IMG/VR virus record: IMGVR_UViG_3300007541_000026
Coordinates: 1 to 54,654 of that record
Reading direction: 5' to 3' (one strand)
DNA length: 54,654 nucleotides
Origin: a virus
Lineage: Duplodnaviria > Caudoviricetes
Within the stretch, counting starts at the first letter, position 1. Every line of letters starts with the position of its first letter. Positions 3,784-29,053 of the stretch are shown one piece after another. The notes under the pieces are model-generated. The model was not told where the DNA came from, did no database searches, and saw only the letters and a program-made list of their open reading frames with translations. Position numbers and translations under genes: made by a program.

Positions 3784-3807
3784 CCCGGCCCCTTAGCGGG
3801 GGCCGGG
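3784..3807 (+). terminator. GC-rich hairpin after portal (terminator or RNA-stabilising stem)
   Basis: CCCGGCCCC-TTAGC-GGGGGCCGGG inverted repeat just after the portal stop. No clear U-tail. Confidence 0.5.
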
Positions 3808-3905
3808 TGGGTACCCAACGATTTCAGCGGGATAACCCCGTAAGGCCGGAGGCATGTTGCCCGAGGCCGACCAGACGCGCATGATGCGCGAAAGGACAAA
3901 CGACA

Positions 3906-4730
3906 ATGCTAAAGCGAAGGATTACTTCACTCGAAGAGGCGCCGGAGGGTCTGGCGAAGTTTTACGTAGAGGACGGCGACGGATTCGCCCTAGAGATCGA
4001 CGGCCCCGGACAGGACGATGTCGACAAACTGAAGGCGGCACTCGCGAATGAGCGTGAAGCTCACAAAGCGACCAAGTCGCGGTTCAGCGGCGTTGACATG
4101 ACTGCGGACGAGATCCAGCAGCTCCGCGACGAGGCGGACGATCTCCGATTCCAACTGGAGAACGCCCCGAAGGCCCGCGATCCGCAAGAGATGGAAGACC
4201 GGGCCGAGCTGCTCGCGGCCCGCAAGACGCGCGAACTCGACCGTGAGCTTCAGGCCCTGCGGGAGCAGAACAGCTCCTTCAGCGAGGCCATCAAGCTGCA
4301 CGAGGCTGCCGCCAATCAGCGCATGCTGCGCGATGCGGCGATGGACGCGATCTCCGGCGACAAGGGCGTCAAGCTGGTCGACTCGGCCCGCGAGGATTTG
4401 ATCCCGTTCGTCGAGCGCAACTTCGAGACGAACGACCTCGGAGAGATCGTCTCCAAGGACGGAGTCGGGCTGGAGCCCGGGCTGACCATCCGAGAGACGC
4501 TGAACGAGATGCAGGCGTCGGGGCGACGCAGCCACTGGTTCGCCGGGAACACCTCCGCTGGCGCGGCGGGTTCCAAGGGCGGAGCCGCGGCAGGCGGCCC
4601 CAATCCGTTCGCGAAGGACACTTTCTCCATGACTGAGATCGGTAGGCTTGTCAAATCCGATCCCGCGCGAGCCAAGGCTTTGGCGAAAGCCGCTGGCGAG
4701 TCTCCCGCCAAGTTCGGACTGGGAAACTAA
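3906..4730 (+). CDS. Capsid scaffolding protein
   Basis: Acidic coiled-coil with N-terminal YVEDGDGFALEI and KLKAALANER, and C-terminal Gly-rich linker plus NPFAK...SMTEIGRL...DP.RA. Directly upstream of MCP. Confidence 0.85.
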   Translation: MLKRRITSLEEAPEGLAKFYVEDGDGFALEIDGPGQDDVDKLKAALANEREAHKATKSRFSGVDMTADEIQQLRDEADDLRFQLENAPKARDPQEMEDRAELLAARKTRELDRELQALREQNSSFSEAIKLHEAAANQRMLRDAAMDAISGDKGVKLVDSAREDLIPFVERNFETNDLGEIVSKDGVGLEPGLTIRETLNEMQASGRRSHWFAGNTSAGAAGSKGGAAAGGPNPFAKDTFSMTEIGRLVKSDPARAKALAKAAGESPAKFGLGN

Positions 4731-4885
4731 TCGCGCAACAGACTCACCCGAGCGGCGCATGTAGCGCCGCTCGGTTGAACTGTGCGAGAACCTCGCACAC
4801 CACGCCACACAACTGAATAAACAACCTAATGGGCAAAGGAGCCGAGTGGCACCACCGCCCGAATCCTGAGAAGGAAAAAATAGCA

Positions 4886-5893
4886 ATGGCTACGACTCAG
4901 ATTGCAGACGTGGTTGTGCCCGAGGTGTTCTCGGCGTACACCCAGGAACTCAGCACGGAGCTGAGCCTCCTCGTTCGATCCGGCGTGATCGCACGCAACC
5001 CAGCCCTCGACGCGTTCCTCGCGGGCGGTGGCAACTTCATCCAGATGCCGATGTGGGAAGACCTCTCGGACACCGAGGCGAACATCTCGGGCGACTCCGG
5101 TACCGCTGGCACCGAGAAGATCGGGTCTCACAAGGAGATCGGGATCCGACACAACCGGAACCAGGCTTGGGCCTCGATGGACCTCAGCGCGCAGCTCGCT
5201 GGCTCGGACCCGATGGACGCCATCGCTCGCCGCGTCGCCGCGTACTGGGTGCGCCAGGAGCAATTGATGGTCAACAGCATGATCGCTGGTCTGATCGCGG
5301 GCACGGCCTCGCTGCTCAACGACATCGCTGCGGCGGACAACGTCGACGTGGCTGCGGGCAACCTCGCGACGGGCTCGGACTTCCTCGACACGTTCCAGCT
5401 CCTCGGCGACCACAAGAGCAACGTGACGGCGATCGCGCTGCACTCGGTTGTTCACACGAACCTCCAGAAGGCGAACCTGATCGACTTCATCCCGGAGAGC
5501 CGGGCGGACGTCGGTTTCGGCACCTACATGGGCAAGACCCTGCTGGTTGACGACGGCCTGACCGTCGACACGAGCCGAACCGCGGCCGACACGACCACGG
5601 TTCAGCCGATGTACACCTCGGTTGTCTTCGGCCCCGGCGCGTTCCAGTACGGCGTCGGTTCTCCCCGCGTGGGAACCGAGATCGACCGCAACCCGCTCGC
5701 CGGAACCGGCGGTGGTGAGGAGTACCTCGTGAACCGACGCGAGTTCGTGCTGCACCCGGCCGGATTCTCGGTCGCACTCAACGTCGCTGCGGGCGAGAGC
5801 CCGACCAACGCAGAGCTGGCGGCCTCCACGGCCTACACGCTCGTTGGACAGCGCAAGCAGGTCCCGCTCGCGGTTCTGCGCTCGAACGGCTGA
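4886..5893 (+). CDS. Major capsid protein (HK97 fold)
   Basis: Starts MATTQIADVVVPEVF; contains GG..IQMP.W.DL, GSDPMDAIA and TYMGK.L.VDD motifs. About 335 aa, strongly biased codons, followed by a terminator. Confidence 0.93.
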   Translation: MATTQIADVVVPEVFSAYTQELSTELSLLVRSGVIARNPALDAFLAGGGNFIQMPMWEDLSDTEANISGDSGTAGTEKIGSHKEIGIRHNRNQAWASMDLSAQLAGSDPMDAIARRVAAYWVRQEQLMVNSMIAGLIAGTASLLNDIAAADNVDVAAGNLATGSDFLDTFQLLGDHKSNVTAIALHSVVHTNLQKANLIDFIPESRADVGFGTYMGKTLLVDDGLTVDTSRTAADTTTVQPMYTSVVFGPGAFQYGVGSPRVGTEIDRNPLAGTGGGEEYLVNRREFVLHPAGFSVALNVAAGESPTNAELAASTAYTLVGQRKQVPLAVLRSNG

Positions 5894-5899
5894 TAGACT

Positions 5900-5928
5900 G
5901 AGGGGGCACTTCGGTGCCCCCTCTTTCT
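5900..5928 (+). terminator. Rho-independent terminator after MCP
   Basis: GAGGGGGCAC-TTCG-GTGCCCCCTC followed by TTTCT. Confidence 0.85.
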
Positions 5929-5983
5929 CTCGCATCTCATGTGGGATGCACCCCTCCAATCTGTGATAGTGAAGGAGTTCACA

Positions 5984-6361
5984 ATGTCCGAAGAGACCCC
6001 CATCGAAGAAGTAGCCGCCGAAGAGGCGGCCCCCAAGAAAGAAAATCGCGCCAAGGCCCCGAAGCGCGAAAACCCGATTCCGGGCTCACCAGAGATCGAC
6101 GACCTGTTCCCCGGCGACGAGGGCTACCGCTTCGGCACGGCCTTCGAGATGATCGTGGAGCGGATCAACGACCTCGAAGACGAGATCAAGGAACTGCACG
6201 AGCTGCGAAGAAAGATCGCGGCCGTCCAGCCGAAAGCGAAGCAACTGGACAGCGTTGAGATGTGGCAGAGCCAGCAGGCGATCCAGCGTCGGCTCAAGGC
6301 TGAAGAGGACGAGCGCAAGCTCAAGGTCCAGGCAGTCCTCAGAGAGATGAAACTTCTCTAA
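5984..6361 (+). CDS. Hypothetical coiled-coil protein (head module)
   Basis: AAGGAG SD, ATG 5984, typical codon usage. Confidence 0.75.
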   Translation: MSEETPIEEVAAEEAAPKKENRAKAPKRENPIPGSPEIDDLFPGDEGYRFGTAFEMIVERINDLEDEIKELHELRRKIAAVQPKAKQLDSVEMWQSQQAIQRRLKAEEDERKLKVQAVLREMKLL

Positions 6362-6413
6362 ACACGAACCCGGAGCGGCGAGGTTGAGCCACAGGCTCCC
6401 CAGCTCCCACCAC

Positions 6414-6470
6414 GCGGCGGAGGTCGGATAGGTAGTGCAGATACCTCTTCCGGCCTCCGCCGCTTTTTTT
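6414..6470 (+). terminator. Long-stem intrinsic terminator
   Basis: GCGGCGGAGGTCGGA...TCCGGCCTCCGCCGC with inner AGGTA/TACCT stem, followed by T7. Confidence 0.8.
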
Positions 6471-6496
6471 GTTCTACCACCCCCATGGAGGCCGAC

Positions 6497-6733
6497 ATGG
6501 CACGACTCAAGAGAGGGCGAGGTGCTACGCTCGCCATGCAGAACTGGTACATCGTCCAGAGGCGACGCGGCGACCTCGGGGATGGCGTTAACTCTGGCAA
6601 CAACGGCGGCACCCCGACGGCGGCGACCTACGGACCAAACTACATTGAGCCTCGGGACATTCCCGCAGGCGCACTTCTGGACGAGAACGGCAACCCGATC
6701 CTCGATGAGAACGGCGACTTCATCATCGTCTAA
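6497..6733 (+). CDS. Small putative virion (head decoration/fibre anchor) protein
   Basis: GGAG SD. C-terminal tandem LLDENGNP/ILDENGDF motif of the kind seen in phage structural proteins. Confidence 0.6.
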   Translation: MARLKRGRGATLAMQNWYIVQRRRGDLGDGVNSGNNGGTPTAATYGPNYIEPRDIPAGALLDENGNPILDENGDFIIV

Positions 6734-6749
6734 CGAAAAAGGACACACA

Positions 6750-9266
6750 ATGTTCAAGTATTTCCTGACGGCGATTCTGGTCGCCATGCTCCCGGGGTCC
6801 GCACTCGCGGTCACTGCCAATGTAGATCAATCAAGCACTCCGATCCTGACGTACACTGTGCGTGCGAGGGACACGTCGCCTTCGACGATTCTGTCGATGG
6901 GCGGCGCTGGGGAGTGTTCCATTCAGCTTCAATCGAACGGAGCTACCCTTCAGGTGGCCCCCCGTGCCGACGCCACGGTACCCCACAGCACGGCCATGGG
7001 CGACGCGGCCGCGGTGTCAACCTCTACCTCTGGCAATCACACGTTCACCTCTGGCGCAGGGCAGTTCTCCGTCGCATTCACCGCGGCTGACAACTCATCT
7101 GTCTCGATCACCTGCAACCCGACCGCGTCCGCGGGTGCGGGTTCGAGTTCGACTTTGCAGGGAGACTGGCCCGCGTCTAGTGTGGAAAACGTCTACGGCA
7201 TCAACAACATCCTACTCGGTGATGGCCTTAATGACTTCGTCGAGACGACGGTGCTATCACCTAAGTGGGTATCGGGACTCAAGTTCGAGCCCATCTTCAA
7301 CCTCGATGGCGAGAAGGTGTGGTGTGCGGGGGGCTCGGACTTGACCAAGCCTTGGTTCGACTGCGGTGTCCGTACCGGACTCTACAAGACCAAGTCCAAC
7401 GCCTTGTATATGCAGATGACAAATTTGTCACCCGGCGAAGCGCACATGATTAACGCGGAGTTGTTGGGCGGCGGAGACACGGACCCTAATGGTATGCACC
7501 TGAGAGTCTTGCAGTCAGGCGGAAGCCAGACTGGTGGGGATGAGGGCATTAACGGTATCCGCTTGGTCACGAATGTCAACTGGGGAGCCAGCTTCGGCAC
7601 TCTTGACGGCGACCTGTCTGCGGCCACGGGAAATGAGGTACCTGTAGACATTACTGGCGTCTCGGAATATGAGACGAACTTCGTCGGTGTAGGTAAGTTG
7701 CTCGTCATCTCTGGGTCGCCGGAAGTGTTCTCGGTGACGCTCGCGGACCAGAGCAGCAGCAGCCCGCAGCGTCCGAAGCAGTCCGTCCTGCGAGGCTTCG
7801 CCAACAACGGCGGCGTCAGGGGCTCTTTCCTTCTGGACAGTGACCTCCCGGCTACGGTAGACGCGGGTAACTGGTGCATGTACGATCCGGCGATGGACTA
7901 CTTCGCTGGAGGTACTGGCCCGGCGGACACCCACTACTGGCTCCGCATCAGCGAGGTTGCGCGGAGTACGGATTCCGGCAACCCGGCCCCGTCATTCACT
8001 ACTTCGTGGTATGTGCAAGGGCAAGACCTCAAGTACCCAAACTACATAATGTGGTCTGGTGAGTACCACTTCGCGCCTTGCTACACCATCACGAAGGTTG
8101 AGCAGGACCCGTCCACCAAGGTGACGAACCGAGTCTACGTCGAGAAGACGGTGAACCACACGGAGCTTTCTGGCGCGAACTGGGAGGTGACGCCATACGG
8201 CGAACTGAAGCAGACCGGCATCAAGGTTCTCCAGACGGCCAACATCAACCCTGCGTTCTCTGGGGCGGCGGTCAGCGCAGTCCATGAGGTGGGCACGGCG
8301 TCCGGCAGCCGATACCAGTTGCCCGCAGCTTTTTCCGTCGAACACTCTAGTAACTGCGTCACGGCGGATCGGGCCACGTCCTGTATTGAGGATGGCACTT
8401 TCGGCGCATTTGGTGTCGGAATGGAAATCGGGGAGTGGTCCGCGAACAAGGGTATCCGGTATCGCTACCCTGATGCGGACTCTTCGCTTGGGTTCGCCCC
8501 GCTTGAGATCCGACCGACTACGGGTCAGAGCGGCCTCAACTGGGGCTTGACTGGGTCGACTGGAAGGTTCCACACCGTCATCGACGTGTATCAGCACGTC
8601 GACAAGAGCATCATCCTGAACGGAACGTACGGGTGGGGCGTTGGACGAACGGGCACCAAGTGGTTCCCTCTGATCTCAACGGCCACGGTGACCGGCCACA
8701 CGGACGGACAGTTCCTGACGTGGTCGAACACAGACAGCGCATACGTCGAGACGGCTCCTGGCTTGGATGACCTGACGGGCGTAGATCTGACGACTACGGC
8801 TCCGACGAACGGCGACGTTCTGTCCTTCGACGGCACCAACTGGGTGCCCGGCGCTGGCGGCGGCGGGACCAACACCTCGTTCTCAAACTTCCAAGCTATC
8901 GGGTCGGGCGAGGCGGCGATATTTAACGGTGGCGCCGCGATTTCCACATGGAATGCCTCGTACACGGCGTTCTCATTTGCAGGAGCCTCCTACACGGCGA
9001 CCTTGCCGGAGATCACAGGGACAAGCGACCGACAAAAGCGATTGGAGATATGGGTTCAGCCCGGCGTGACCTTGACAATCCAAGGGCACACCAATGATGC
9101 GACCGCCTTGGGATTCAACTTGGTCACGACAGGTCCGGGGACGGCGAGCATGACGTTCACCGCTCCGGCGACTGACATCGCGTGCAAGGTTGAGGTGTTC
9201 GTCCGAAATGACAACGCGGTCATGACGTCGAGCACCTGCCCGACGCAGACTCTGAGCAACCCATAG
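6750..9266 (+). CDS. 838-aa beta-rich fibre-like protein with N-terminal Sec signal peptide
   Basis: AAGGA SD before ATG 6750. MFKYFLTAILVAMLPGSALA has n/h/c regions and an AxA site. Ser/Thr/Gly-rich, 10 Cys, phage-fibre spacer LDDLTGVD..TAPTNGDVLSFDGTNWVP. Confidence 0.75.
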   Translation: MFKYFLTAILVAMLPGSALAVTANVDQSSTPILTYTVRARDTSPSTILSMGGAGECSIQLQSNGATLQVAPRADATVPHSTAMGDAAAVSTSTSGNHTFTSGAGQFSVAFTAADNSSVSITCNPTASAGAGSSSTLQGDWPASSVENVYGINNILLGDGLNDFVETTVLSPKWVSGLKFEPIFNLDGEKVWCAGGSDLTKPWFDCGVRTGLYKTKSNALYMQMTNLSPGEAHMINAELLGGGDTDPNGMHLRVLQSGGSQTGGDEGINGIRLVTNVNWGASFGTLDGDLSAATGNEVPVDITGVSEYETNFVGVGKLLVISGSPEVFSVTLADQSSSSPQRPKQSVLRGFANNGGVRGSFLLDSDLPATVDAGNWCMYDPAMDYFAGGTGPADTHYWLRISEVARSTDSGNPAPSFTTSWYVQGQDLKYPNYIMWSGEYHFAPCYTITKVEQDPSTKVTNRVYVEKTVNHTELSGANWEVTPYGELKQTGIKVLQTANINPAFSGAAVSAVHEVGTASGSRYQLPAAFSVEHSSNCVTADRATSCIEDGTFGAFGVGMEIGEWSANKGIRYRYPDADSSLGFAPLEIRPTTGQSGLNWGLTGSTGRFHTVIDVYQHVDKSIILNGTYGWGVGRTGTKWFPLISTATVTGHTDGQFLTWSNTDSAYVETAPGLDDLTGVDLTTTAPTNGDVLSFDGTNWVPGAGGGGTNTSFSNFQAIGSGEAAIFNGGAAISTWNASYTAFSFAGASYTATLPEITGTSDRQKRLEIWVQPGVTLTIQGHTNDATALGFNLVTTGPGTASMTFTAPATDIACKVEVFVRNDNAVMTSSTCPTQTLSNP

Positions 9267-9272
9267 GCTTCT

Positions 9273-9306
9273 GGCCGGTGAGCCTAAATCACCGGCCCCT
9301 TTTTTC
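9273..9306 (+). terminator. Intrinsic terminator
   Basis: GGCCGGTGA-GCCTAAA-TCACCGGCC followed by CCTTTTTT. Confidence 0.75.
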
Positions 9307-9325
9307 CCGTACACAGGAGTGTCCC

Positions 9326-10336
9326 ATGATTGAACGAGCTGAGGAACTCCTCGAACGGTATGTTTCTAACCACCAAGTCGACGGCGTGGCCTACACGAGG
9401 CACTCTCACGGGCTGTACTGGACTGACGACGACAATGCGCTGTACACGGGCCTGATGCTCGGGGCGATGGCGTACCGCTGGGCGGCTGATCCGTCTGACG
9501 ACAAGCTGGACGCGATCCGCATGTCCCTGCGGGGAACGGATCTGCTGCTCCGGGCGACCGGCGACCCCGGCGTCCTGGTTCGCCGTGCGATGCACCGGGA
9601 CCAGATCAAGGAGTTCGGCGGCGCGGCGTACCTCGACCAGAAGCCCTGCGAGCTGATCGGCGACTACTGGGTCCAACTGAAGACGACCCGCGATCAGGTC
9701 ACGGGCGTCATGTTCGGGCTGGCCTGCTGCATCGCCTTGGTGCGCGGCGCGGACCCGATGATCGACGAGGTCGTAGACCGACAGGTGATGACCCTCTACA
9801 CGGCCCTGAAGCGCCGCCAATGGTCTCTCCGGGACCACAACTACGAGACTCACGGGACGAGCGCGCACAAGCTGGACGCGGGCCTGCGGCTCCTCATAAG
9901 GGTCATGGCGAAGGCCGTCGGCGCGGAGGGCGAGGTCGAGACCGAGAGCTGGTTCGACTGGCAATGGATCACGACGGCCCACTACAATGTGAGCTTCCAA
10001 GCCGCGTATAGCCACGGCCTGAACGCGATCAACGCCCACGCCCTCTGGCTACTCCGGCCGTGGAACCCTCAGTACCGTCAGACGAAGCGGTGGATGAGCC
10101 GGATCGAGTCCGTCGTCCGCGACGAGTTCAACCCGTTCTGGCAGATGCTGCTTGACTTCCGCCTGAGCCCCGAGGGGGACATCCGGCTGATGGAGGCGGG
10201 TGAGGATACCTACAGCCGGTTCTTCAGGTGGAACCGCTACAGGAAGGAACTGACGATGCGGCAGGACACGGAAGGTCCGGGCATCGACTACATGATCGTG
10301 GCCTACATGGCTGCATATTGGGACGGAAGGAACTGA
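9326..10336 (+). CDS. Helical protein, possible (alpha/alpha)-barrel enzyme
   Basis: AGGAG SD. Motifs DDNALYTG...YRWA, TGDPG..VRR and TTRDQVTGVMFGL resemble an uncharacterised bacterial family I recall as six-hairpin-glycosidase-like. Confidence 0.5.
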   Translation: MIERAEELLERYVSNHQVDGVAYTRHSHGLYWTDDDNALYTGLMLGAMAYRWAADPSDDKLDAIRMSLRGTDLLLRATGDPGVLVRRAMHRDQIKEFGGAAYLDQKPCELIGDYWVQLKTTRDQVTGVMFGLACCIALVRGADPMIDEVVDRQVMTLYTALKRRQWSLRDHNYETHGTSAHKLDAGLRLLIRVMAKAVGAEGEVETESWFDWQWITTAHYNVSFQAAYSHGLNAINAHALWLLRPWNPQYRQTKRWMSRIESVVRDEFNPFWQMLLDFRLSPEGDIRLMEAGEDTYSRFFRWNRYRKELTMRQDTEGPGIDYMIVAYMAAYWDGRN

Positions 10337-10337
10337 C

Positions 10338-10889
10338 ATGCCCACATCATCCGATATGGTCGTCGAGAACGGCACGGGCCGACTCGACGCGAACAGCTAC
10401 GTCTCGATCATCGAGGCAGACACGTACCACAGCCTGCGCGGGAACACGATCTGGGCCTCGGCCACCGAGTCCGACAAGGTCGTCGCTCTGGTTCGCGCTA
10501 CGGACTACGTGGACGCCCGATGGAAGTTCACGGGCGAGCCGGTCAAGTCGACTCAGGCGCTCACGTTCCCTCGCAAGAGTGAGTACCTGAACAAGAATGG
10601 CGACGACGTCTCCGCATCTGTTCCGGTCGAGATCGCGAGTGCGACCATGGAATACGCCCTGCTCGTCCTCGGCGACGGCACGGCCCTCATCGAGCTTTCT
10701 CCGGCAGCGGAGGACGCGACCCAGAGCCGGGTCATCATGCAGCGGGACAAGGTCGGATCTCTGGAGACCGAGACTCGCTGGGACTCGGGTTTGTCGGCTA
10801 GGGTCACGGTATCCTACCCCGCTGCGGATCGAATCATCAAGTCCTCCGGCTTTCTCGCCTACGGCGGCAATGGAGGCACGATGCGATGA
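10338..10889 (+). CDS. Head-tail adaptor (family often mislabelled DnaT-like)
   Basis: VVENGTG...ANSYVS..EADTYH..RG...W and AL.RATDY.D, QAL.FPR signature; position in neck module. Confidence 0.85.
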   Translation: MPTSSDMVVENGTGRLDANSYVSIIEADTYHSLRGNTIWASATESDKVVALVRATDYVDARWKFTGEPVKSTQALTFPRKSEYLNKNGDDVSASVPVEIASATMEYALLVLGDGTALIELSPAAEDATQSRVIMQRDKVGSLETETRWDSGLSARVTVSYPAADRIIKSSGFLAYGGNGGTMR

Positions 10890-14154: not shown

Positions 14155-14565
14155 ATGAGCATTTATGACCTTTTTGAAGAGAACGTGGACGAGGCCGACG
14201 GCTTCATCCTCGAAGTGCAGGACGGAGACACCTCCGTTGAGTTCAAGCTGGCCCGGGCGGGCTCGCAGAACAAGAAGTACGTGACGCGCCTTCAGGCGCT
14301 CATGAAGCCCTACAAGTACCAGATCGACCGCGGCACGATGAAGGAAGACGTGGCCGAGGCGATCATGGCTCAGGTGATCGCCGAGACGATCATCCTCGGC
14401 TGGAATGGCGTCACGGATCGGGACGGTGAGGAGATGGAGTACACGCCCGAGCTGGCGAAGCAGCTCCTGCTGGACCTCCCGGCCCTGCGGAATCTCATCA
14501 TGGAGGAGTCGCAGAACGTCGCTAACTTCCTGCGCGAGAAGCGGGAGGAGCGCGAGGGAAACTAG
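14155..14565 (+). CDS. Tail assembly chaperone (G-like)
   Basis: AAGGAG SD; ARAG..N..Y and I.GW.GV.D.DG....YT.E motifs; ends in slippery G GGA AAC TAG. Confidence 0.85.
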   Translation: MSIYDLFEENVDEADGFILEVQDGDTSVEFKLARAGSQNKKYVTRLQALMKPYKYQIDRGTMKEDVAEAIMAQVIAETIILGWNGVTDRDGEEMEYTPELAKQLLLDLPALRNLIMEESQNVANFLREKREEREGN

Positions 14566-14927
14566 CAGAGTACCTGCGCTGGTCTCTCGTCTATGGCGAG
14601 AAGGCGGCTGCGGTCATCGAGGCGGCTACGGAAGCCGGAAGGCTCCCGCCCGCCTCGATGATCCCGCCGGACCTAGACGACGACGAAGCGGGGTACGTGC
14701 AGGCGTTCTGGGATTTGTGTCGGGATCGGATCTACACCGCTGGAGGAGCGGCTGCGATCCCGTGGACAGCATGTCACACATACGCTCTACATCTGGGCCT
14801 GGGTCGCTACGAGGACCTATACGACGACTTCATGCACGCCATGCGGGTCATGGATTCAGTGTACCTCAAGGAGGTCGCTGAGGAGGCCGAGAGGCAGAAG
14901 CGGGCAGCCGAGAGGAAACGGAGATAG
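14556..14927 (+). CDS. -1 frameshift extension of tail chaperone (GT-like product, 14155-14927)
   Basis: X XXY YYZ heptamer GGGAAAC at 14556-14562. The -1 frame (KLAEYLRW...) is open and continuous with ORF 14658-14927 (AFWDL...R..IPW). Confidence 0.85.
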   Translation, partial: GKLAEYLRWSLVYGEKAAAVIEAATEAGRLPPASMIPPDLDDDEAGYVQAFWDLCRDRIYTAGGAAAIPWTACHTYALHLGLGRYEDLYDDFMHAMRVMDSVYLKEVAEEAERQKRAAERKRR

Positions 14928-28660: not shown

Positions 28661-29053
28661 ATGCCCGAGTTCGGCAGAAGGTCACTAGAGGCCCTAGAAT
28701 ACGTTGAGCCGAGACTTCGCCTCGTACTGGAGGAAGTCATCAGGTACTGGGATTTCTCGGTCCTAGAGGGCTTCAGAGGGCCTGAGAGACAGGACGAGCT
28801 GTTCGAGCAGGGGGCCACGAAGGTCCGCTGGCCCGGATCGGCTCACAACGCCCTGCCCAGCAGGGCCGTAGACATCGCACCGTACCCGATCGACTGGGAG
28901 GATACCGAGAGGTTCGTCCAGCTCGCCGGGGCCGTGCTGACCGTCGCCCGGCAGTTCGGAGTCGAGCTGCGCTGGGGCGGCGACTGGGATCGGGACGGAC
29001 GCATGGCGGACGAGAGATTCCGGGACTTGGTCCATTTCGAGATTGTGGAGTAG
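28661..29053 (+). CDS. Endolysin, M15 family (L-Ala-D-Glu peptidase-like)
   Basis: EG.R..ERQ..L...G, SAHN...S.AVD, RWGGDW and D..HFE zinc-peptidase motifs. Confidence 0.92.
   Translation: MPEFGRRSLEALEYVEPRLRLVLEEVIRYWDFSVLEGFRGPERQDELFEQGATKVRWPGSAHNALPSRAVDIAPYPIDWEDTERFVQLAGAVLTVARQFGVELRWGGDWDRDGRMADERFRDLVHFEIVE

Follow-up and report, generated by a model that had tools for sequence, protein, structure and literature searches.

Here we report that P0001, an 838-amino-acid (aa) protein encoded at window:6750-9266, appears to be a fibre-type phage protein made for export and oxidative folding. The window is the whole stretch of DNA analysed, the 54,654-base IMG/VR virus record IMGVR_UViG_3300007541_000026, which is without end repeats and has an estimated completeness of 72%. 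In Pfam and PHROG scans its plus-strand half reads as a standard siphovirus late region. P0001 lies there between the genes for the major capsid protein and the head-tail adaptor, bracketed by terminator-like hairpins (Table 1), as a sequence-only reading of the same DNA had it; the coordinates and the PHROG matches of scaffold, capsid and adaptor agree with that placement. We consider it highly probable that P0001 is translated late, exported through Sec and folded in the periplasm with five disulfides, these steps being taken jointly. The full chain of events, ending in an exoprotein that acts free or at the envelope on a host surface glycan, is our leading account, held tentatively and with less than even confidence.

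The N-terminus of P0001 can be read directly as a Sec signal peptide. Its n-region, MFK, holds the single positive charge, its h-region, YFLTAILVAML, is an 11-residue uncharged hydrophobic stretch, and its c-region, PGSALA, opens with a Pro-Gly break and places Ala at -3 and -1. With residues 1-55 free of Cys the signal lacks a lipobox, and an RR motif is likewise absent. Signal peptides of P0001 and its relatives were called by a crude hydrophobicity and AxA heuristic, positive for P0001, together with direct reading. Relatives came from several searches: a word-indexed search returned 9, all metagenomic; an A3 profile search returned the same 9 proteins again; and a region search with P0043 added 6 more. 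An exhaustive search of 1.84 billion representatives gave 289 matches at an expectation value (E)<=1e-3, and the best 150 of these were sorted by the part of P0001 they cover into core sharers (about residues 135-670), N-domain-only proteins (about 3-140) and a majority of spacer-only proteins (about 640-715).

By this heuristic, a signal-peptide-like start is present in 19 of 22 core relatives and in 5 of 6 N-domain-only proteins, against 2 of the 125 Met-starting proteins of the spacer-only control. The four misses (P0006, P0009, P0080 and P0016) are 5'-truncated or start inside the signal. Within the late region of the window, 1 of 22 proteins begins in this way, namely P0001. The near-identical P0004 apart, relatives are only 15-41% identical to P0001 over residues 1-20, yet their divergent signals retain the n/h/c layout with small residues at the cleavage site, and a signal peptide is kept in relatives down to about 21-25% identity. 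A leaderless core was never seen. The claim of a Sec signal peptide made in the sequence-only reading thus holds up on its anatomy and on its conservation in the family. Predicted export of P0001 through Sec, with a cut by signal peptidase I after Ala20, is well supported by these sequence features, and that export would be a family-wide trait and not the chance of one sequence is strongly supported.

The cysteines point the same way. P0001 contains exactly 10, as had been counted before (residues 56, 122, 192, 205, 376, 444, 536, 545, 812 and 830), a density of 1.19%. The capsid, scaffold, adaptor, closure, terminator and tape-measure proteins of the window have none, and the density is 0-0.6% in 18 of 21 other late proteins; the denser exceptions are the product of the open reading frame (ORF) 14405-14881 (3.16%), the phrog_778 tail protein (1.41%) and the 336-aa gene product next to P0001 (0.89%). 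In alignment A1, 8 of the 10 Cys do not vary, and at least 90% of rows retain C830. Counted over the mature region (after residue 22), the number of Cys is even in 25 of 25 family members (8, 10, 12, 14, 16 or 20), which are related by descent and do not amount to 25 independent trials. Four members with odd totals each have one Cys within the signal peptide. The spacer-only control is split, with 76 even and 51 odd counts and 0.31% Cys. Individual pairs also come and go as units: C192 and C205 occur together in 15 rows and are jointly missing from the distant subgroup; C376 and C444 occur together in 20 rows, and P0080 has substitutions at both. Signal-peptide proteins in the cassette of a related locus, L014, are even in mature Cys as well.

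Because parity is even throughout and pairs are gained and lost together, oxidative folding of P0001 with paired cysteines may be regarded as well supported, and five consecutive disulfides per chain are supported indirectly. The earlier proposal of export followed by disulfide folding in the periplasm is strongly supported by both family-wide traits, signal peptide and even Cys count, down to about 21-25% identity. An ordinary virion fibre assembled in the cytoplasm, its hydrophobic N-terminus being for example an assembly or membrane-tethering helix and no working export signal, would suit the place of the gene in the virion module and its fibre-type modules. We regard it as very unlikely, since canonical n/h/c and AxA sites persist while the signal sequence diverges, such an N-terminus is so rare among leaderless-type spacer proteins, the even-Cys rule has no exception, and the Cys density of P0001 is far from that of most late proteins.

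An ORF of 943 aa from a GTG (6435-9266) includes the P0001 ATG at 6750. An AGGA lies 6 nucleotides upstream of this ATG, and the resulting 838-aa protein begins with MFKYFLTAILVAMLPGSALA, followed after the predicted cut by VTANV. The start Met is equivalent, within a few residues, in 7 of 9 relatives in A1, the other two being 5'-truncated fragments. Upstream of 6750, G+C content (GC) by codon position in the P0001 frame is 0.51/0.70/0.58, a non-coding pattern, whereas the 78-aa frame overlapping that stretch gives 0.62/0.47/0.75, a coding pattern. Because the starts of relatives agree and the upstream extension is non-coding by its GC pattern, we take ATG 6750 as the start, and the concern that the true start might lie elsewhere finds no support. 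The third-position GC (GC3) of P0001 is 0.74 against 0.85 for the capsid gene, and its overall GC matches the rest of the window. That P0001 is a genuine late gene is well supported.

The mature protein has a modular, recombining, fibre-type build, which is well supported. Its N-domain is modelled by AlphaFold2 (AF2) as a beta-sandwich, and a hidden Markov model (HMM) of this domain matches six signal-peptide proteins with other C-terminal parts at E 5e-31 to 3e-45: P0020 and P0074, of about 800 aa, and P0016, P0021, P0090 and P0098, of about 350 aa. A supposed N-domain in the 400-aa L014 protein, P0044 and P0050 was dropped, as the HMM gave no match. The core, which follows, carries the motifs GGDTDPNG and GGSQTGGDEGINGIR; over 17-28 diverse sequences its invariant positions are K213, E230, G242, D245, G257, G263, E265, G266 and R271, and further W397, L398, Q423, P430, Y483, W598 and G628.

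Searches by sequence and by fold place neither the core nor the whole protein in a known family. Pfam (at E<=0.1) and PHROG scans of P0001 gave no match; with the A3 and A1 profiles, searches of PDB sequences gave 0 matches and one chance match at E 0.13; and the best ESM Atlas score for the core, 0.81 to viral clusters, is at chance level. AF2 models had a mean predicted local distance difference test (pLDDT) score of 60.4 for the full protein and 57.8 for a second, core-only run, and the models of the core are poor. With both of these poor models, Foldseek gave no match against PDB at E<=1e-3, and weak cupin/jelly-roll matches over about 110 residues were not used. Against BFVD there were 140 matches at E<=1e-3 with tail and tail-fibre-like proteins on top, at template-modelling (TM) scores of 0.07-0.12 and root-mean-square deviations of 20-50 A; such matches may suggest no more than a beta-rich, fibre-like flavour.

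The distal part is more familiar. A spacer of the tail-fibre type, LDDLTGVD...FDGTNWVP, present once in P0001 and in 0-4 copies in relatives, is common to more than 100 leaderless proteins, and most of the 150 listed matches cover only this segment. All six spacer proteins scanned match phrog_9729 (tail fiber) and phrog_9627, and 3 of the 6 match phrog_677 (baseplate wedge tail fiber connector). The earlier identification of a phage-fibre spacer at about residues 640-715 is therefore sound. When residues 636-838 were modelled in three copies, the ipSAE model-confidence score was 0.73 (median of 3 runs) against 0.00 for the best of 3 controls, with a contact agreement of at least 62%, a partner pLDDT of at least 69 and interface residues in both the spacer and the C-domain. 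The mark used here was reached by 20 of 30 solved homomers and 1 of 23 monomers in a calibration that, being made with two copies and other alignments, is a rough guide only. On this model a trimeric, fibre-like distal part made of spacer and C-domain is predicted. A trimeric autotransporter adhesin, which would end in a YadA-type beta-barrel anchor, was considered and rejected, there being no Pfam match at E<=0.1 and the C-terminus, ...TQTLSNP, lacking a terminal aromatic residue.

Comparison of relatives suggests that these modules are exchanged. P0003 is 40% identical to P0001 in the N-domain, 94% in the core, 97% in the spacer and 92% in the C-domain, and since the neighbours of its gene are only 50-74% identical to those of the window, the core is best seen as a recent import. 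P0004 has signal and N-domain 100% and core 98% identical, the C-domain 50% and the spacer 64% (42 of 75 positions aligned, with no copy of the spacer motif). In P0009, whose N-domain is a fragment, the core is 36%, the spacer 85% and the C-domain 78% identical. Module exchange of this kind is typical of receptor-binding proteins. A further argument, that identical backbones carry different cores in L012, L013, L014 and L015, was abandoned, as these are about 82-85% identical in DNA throughout.

The genomic settings of the relatives are partly constant. A homologue lies directly upstream of the Ad1 adaptor in L002, L003, L004 and L015, with the 336-aa gene between the two in L004, and in the podovirus-like L006/L007 (47% GC) a 731-aa signal-peptide homologue lies directly upstream of an adaptor of the PF24175 SU10-type. 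On a 73.8-kb contig (L010), the genes around a 1,091-aa homologue, whose core is 26% identical, encode primase, ThyX, ribonucleotide reductase and cytidyltransferase; on either side of the homologue stand a 148-aa signal-peptide protein with 4 Cys (L010:5936-6382) and an 85-aa lipoprotein (L010:10626-10883). Asked whether homologues keep the signal peptide and the locus, the family thus gives a divided answer: the signal peptide is kept, and the adaptor-adjacent position is kept in L002, L003, L004, L015 and L006 but not in L010, where the gene sits in a replication region. Scans of IMG/VR with P0043, A4 and A5 for the context of the distant subgroup gave no match.

Upstream of the homologue and adaptor in L014, three consecutive signal-peptide proteins (L014:607-3645; 243, 296 and 400 aa, with 8, 10 and 4 mature Cys) form a cassette. 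The 296-aa protein has a GDS motif and a sub-threshold match to Lipase_GDSL_2 (E 0.006, 17.5 bits against a cut-off of 32.9), and L004 has a 5'-cut copy of this Cys-rich, GDS-motif protein upstream of its homologue. L002 and L012-L015 have, where the window has its 78-aa gene, a 104-aa very basic protein with two C-terminal Cys. This basic protein (L012:1061-1375) overlaps the start of the homologue and gives a weak DUF5754 match (E 0.006).

These observations bear on where P0001 goes once folded. It may be an appendage of the virion matured in the periplasm, an exported, disulfide-bonded trimer that docks through its N-domain onto the capsid or neck of finished particles just after lysis has opened the inner membrane and the wall; two compartments would then contribute to the complete virion, and core and distal modules would be exchanged between phages as host-range cassettes. 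We judge this possible, though doubtful. The gene follows the capsid gene and immediately precedes the adaptor in two adaptor-family backgrounds, and the N-domain tracks the backbone, being 61% identical where Ad1 is 69% and 40% where Ad1 is 59%, while the core is discordant (44% and 94%) in those same two backgrounds; this covariation comes from two comparisons only. The N-domain is also common to at least three kinds of exported proteins, as a docking module would be, the spacer is homologous to that of leaderless fibre families, and the distal part is predicted to be a trimer. To be set against these are the L010-lineage homologue among replication genes, the full leaderless tail tip that the window phage already has, the small exported proteins without fibre features among the L014 cassette partners, and a literature search on abstract openings that gave no report of Sec signal peptides on tailed-phage fibre-type proteins.

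Our lean towards a protein that is not part of the virion follows from this evidence, because exported proteins, one of them esterase-like, form variable cassettes at the same spot in relatives, because the L010 homologue stands outside a virion module, because the tail tip encoded in the window is complete and leaderless (tape measure, phrog_778, phrog_1101, J-like), and because the core never occurs without a signal peptide. P0001 would be a late, accessory product of an aquatic, probably virulent siphovirus, made for use outside the cytoplasm. Translation would start at ATG 6750 on the late head-neck transcript, attenuated by the flanking hairpins; Sec would carry the chain across the inner membrane, where signal peptidase I would cut after Ala20; and periplasmic folding would form five disulfides per chain, as the Cys statistics suggest. 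Spacer and C-domain might then assemble into a homotrimer, on the evidence of the model, giving a fibre-like molecule with a swappable distal end. A diderm host is suggested by the short signals of the Gram-negative type and by lipobox genes in the window, and in such a host P0001 would reach the outside of the cell only with lysis, presumably through the endolysin system of the phage.

On the preferred account, P0001 would not be built into the particle on the cytoplasmic assembly line but would bind or modify a host surface polysaccharide after release by lysis or from a place in the envelope; it would be one of a variable set of exported Cys-paired proteins that strip or mask receptors. Such stripping or masking may keep progeny off debris and prepare neighbouring cells. 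The orphan core, with its invariant Lys, Glu, Asp and Arg and its Gly-rich Asp motifs, would be the working part, either an enzyme or a metal-binding site, and the N-domain a shared targeting or carbohydrate-binding module.

Several points weigh against this account. P0001 has the architecture of a receptor-binding protein, with a conserved N-terminal module, swappable distal modules, a fibre spacer and a predicted trimer, and its gene stands directly upstream of the head-tail adaptor in two unrelated layouts, Ad1 and the PF24175 SU10-type. Pfam, PHROG, PDB-profile and Foldseek searches (the last with poor models) gave no catalytic or carbohydrate-binding family for any part of P0001, nor did they show a beta-helix lyase or hydrolase or an SGNH domain of the kind that tailspike-type depolymerases and esterases have; a weak SGNH signal comes only from a neighbour in relatives. 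An enzyme or lectin role is purely inferred. Both AF2 models are poor by their mean pLDDT. Contigs from RNA libraries are no proof of transcription, and the completeness estimate leaves room for an integrase in the missing part.

A function within the infected cell may also be considered. P0001 might stay in the periplasm or outer membrane and bring about superinfection exclusion or receptor masking, blocking or altering a receptor or DNA-entry route used by this or by competing phages. Lytic phages do export exclusion factors, such as T5 Llp, T1/phi80 Cor and T4 Sp/Imm, and P0001 is exported, late, accessory and variable among related phages, in cassettes with small exported proteins and lipoproteins. 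The known examples are, however, small proteins or lipoproteins, and P0001 has 838 aa, no lipobox and a predicted trimeric fibre; it shares no domain with the tail proteins of its own phage; and transcription with the late genes is late for exclusion. We consider this reading unlikely, and a lipoprotein of the Llp/Cor type in particular was rejected on the absence of Cys in residues 1-55 and on size.

The setting of the gene and the lifestyle of the phage bear on the remaining alternative, a lysogenic-conversion moron, that is, an independently transcribed, prophage-expressed surface protein that alters the host surface. Three sites in the head module combine a hairpin with a U tract, after the capsid gene, after the 140-aa gene and after P0001; the second of these (stem 6414-6463) folds at -40.6 kcal/mol with a z-score of -7.15, and 0 of 200 shuffles fold as well. 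The three look like graded attenuators within the late transcript. A promoter search of 5800-9800 gave 0 sites of the sigma-70 type (shuffle mean 1.1), a weak test since the phage has its own sigma factor and its late promoters may not resemble sigma-70 sites. This sigma-factor-like protein is encoded at window:48023-49060 on the minus strand (phrog_351, E 5e-29), in a half of the window that also encodes DNA polymerase, helicases, primase, ribonucleotide reductase and thymidylate synthase. No integrase was found among the 10 large minus-strand proteins scanned, and the gene set is probably that of a virulent phage.

Near-identical DNA occurs in freshwater, aquatic and estuary metagenome runs. 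In each of 4 metatranscriptome runs, contigs of at least 99% identity span the capsid gene and parts of P0001, DNA carry-over being possible in such libraries; their depth cannot rank genes, and stretches free of contigs (e.g. 3800-4600 and 9674-10741) are not evidence of silence. One RNA-library contig stops at 5894, one base past the capsid stop codon, and continues in unrelated letters that are possibly adapter, which is a guess. Relatives of P0001 were not found in 185,579 species genomes, one genome each, scanned with A1 and A5, or in 50,697 GenBank phage records searched by tblastn (P0001, P0162, P0017) or megablast (20 kb of the window). With a lytic gene set and no prophage copies, P0001 must work during infection or after lysis. 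A moron would account for the terminator-like brackets, the accessory and variable nature of the gene and its lower GC3, but the missing promoter (by that weak test), an overall GC like the rest of the window, the virulent gene set and the lack of any copy in the species genomes make it the most improbable of the readings weighed here.

Table 1. P0001, its modules and the surrounding late-region features of the window.
Feature	Position	Strand	Remarks
Large terminase and portal		+	start of late gene order
Scaffold, phrog_206	3906-4730	+	
Major capsid protein, phrog_247	4829-5893	+	
Terminator-like hairpin	5900-5923	+	directly after major capsid gene; -24.8 kcal/mol, z -5.35
140-aa acidic protein	5939-6361	+	between capsid gene and P0002
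Intrinsic-terminator-like hairpin, stem 6414-6463, then U7	6414-6470	+	upstream boundary of two-gene unit
78-aa ORF, P0002	6497-6733	+	C-terminal LLDENGNPILDENGDF repeat; GGAGG 5 nucleotides upstream; coding-type GC
P0001 signal peptide, aa 1-20	6750-6809	+	predicted cut before V21
P0001 N-domain, aa 21-125	6810-7124	+	C56, C122; modelled beta-sandwich, AF2 pLDDT about 84-92 over aa 31-120
P0001 core, aa 136-640	7155-8669	+	orphan; Cys 192/205, 376/444, 536/545
P0001 tail-fibre-type spacer, aa 641-715	8670-8894	+	one copy
P0001 C-terminal beta domain, aa 716-838, and stop codon	8895-9266	+	C812, C830; AF2 pLDDT about 65-80
Terminator-like hairpin 9273-9297, then CCUUUUUUCC	9273-9306	+	downstream boundary; -18.6 kcal/mol, z -3.3
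336-aa leaderless accessory gene	9326-10336	+	between P0001 and adaptor
Ad1 head-tail adaptor, phrog_477/PF20557	10338-10889	+	then head closure, tail terminator
Two phrog_290 tail proteins, tape measure, distal tail proteins (phrog_778, phrog_1101, J-like)		+	after tail terminator
Leaderless endolysin	28661-29053	+	

Among the neighbours, P0002, the 78-aa protein, is probably the product of a real gene, and it is an orphan without a Pfam or PHROG match. It had been put forward as a small anchor for P0001. The 17 related loci searched yielded no relative of it, other genes taking its position in relatives, and an IMG/VR scan gave no more than a 16-residue motif match in an unrelated contig; the anchor proposal has accordingly been given up, and P0002 was rejected as a conserved partner of P0001, being an orphan in a position where upstream partners vary among relatives. 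On the other side of P0001, the 336-aa gene is 74% identical in L004, absent in relatives of the L002/L015 type and without a Pfam match. In the Atlas its product has a confident model (predicted TM score 0.86) and belongs to large clusters in bacteria and phages, the nearest named family (alpha/alpha toroid) having only a chance-level score.

Other features of the window were noted in passing. The tandem paralogous phrog_290 tail proteins (window:11718-14117; 380 and 401 aa) are about 33% identical to each other's counterparts in relatives, and L002 and L015 keep the pair. A strongly hydrophobic stretch lies near the N-terminus of the 1,112-aa J-like tail protein (phrog_1101; window:25275-28613), at about residues 12-35. 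Directly after the endolysin gene, a 102-aa ORF (window:29065-29373) encodes an N-terminal membrane helix and a coiled-coil-like remainder without a PHROG match, and could be an inner-membrane spanin or holin. Two small ORFs on the minus strand have a lipobox and are candidate exclusion or spanin-type lipoproteins: one at window:53522-53809, reading MKFFTTALAGIILATAGC..., lies in the early region behind a strong GGAGG site, and the other at window:29954-30193, reading ...VLLGGC..., adjoins the lysis region.

In the textbook view, the parts of tailed-phage particles fold and assemble in the reducing cytoplasm, and the few phage proteins that are exported serve lysis or exclusion. P0001 resembles modular tail fibres and tailspikes in its shared spacer of the tail-fibre type, its predicted distal trimer, its module exchange and its variable number of spacer copies (0-4). 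It differs from them in its conserved Sec signal peptide and even, conserved Cys set, in the position of its gene between the capsid and adaptor genes and not in the tail module, and in a core that matches no fibre family, P0001 itself being without a PHROG or Pfam match; it also has no domain in common with the tail proteins of the window. Head fibres and decoration proteins such as phi29 gp8.5 and T4 Hoc, and the neck fibre T4 fibritin, are leaderless and assembled in the cytoplasm. The gene of P0001 is likewise a neighbour of the capsid gene, ahead of the neck genes, and its product is predicted to be a trimer, but the PDB searches by sequence and fold gave no match to them. Shiga toxin is a product of a phage late region that is assembled in the periplasm and released by lysis, and the route proposed here, with a late gene, Sec export, periplasmic disulfides and oligomerisation, and release by lysis, would be similar. 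P0001 differs in having no homology to a toxin family and in being of the fibre type and not AB5, and its phage is of the virulent type and environmental.

Late phage proteins that are exported through the host Sec system and kept outside the cytoplasm until lysis have been described, among them Lys44 of phage fOg44, signal-anchor-release (SAR) endolysins and spanins, in a source that also mentions free depolymerase activity in plaque halos (PMC6116005). Control by disulfides is mentioned for P1 Lyz in the phiCbK paper, which is relevant here for lysis proteins only (PMC3556154). P0001 is similarly late, of the Sec type and predicted to be extracytoplasmic. It differs from these lysis proteins in having no muralytic or spanin features or family matches and in its 838-aa, fibre-like, modular build, and the window has a separate leaderless endolysin. 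In Porphyromonas gingivalis phages, genes with Sec signal peptides and unassigned function have been proposed to encode outer-membrane modifiers (PMC10367356). Those are prophage genes of a Bacteroidota host and follow the Q-rule, and the passages concerned describe neither fibre architecture nor Cys pairing for their products (PMC10367356).

P0001 and its relatives represent a family of large phage proteins of the fibre type with exchangeable modules that appear to be consistently built for export and oxidative folding. If P0001 is free or acts at the envelope, it would stand for a hitherto undescribed class of phage exoproteins, released by lysis and directed at the host surface, with a bearing on receptor destruction, on biofilm or capsule stripping and on phage ecology in waters. 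If it is found on virions, it would reveal a second, extracytoplasmic branch of virion assembly and receptor-binding gear hardened by disulfides. Either way, the core, with its conserved acidic and glycine motifs, would be an orphan fold that merits structure determination, and the family offers a concrete test system for the questions of export and virion destination.

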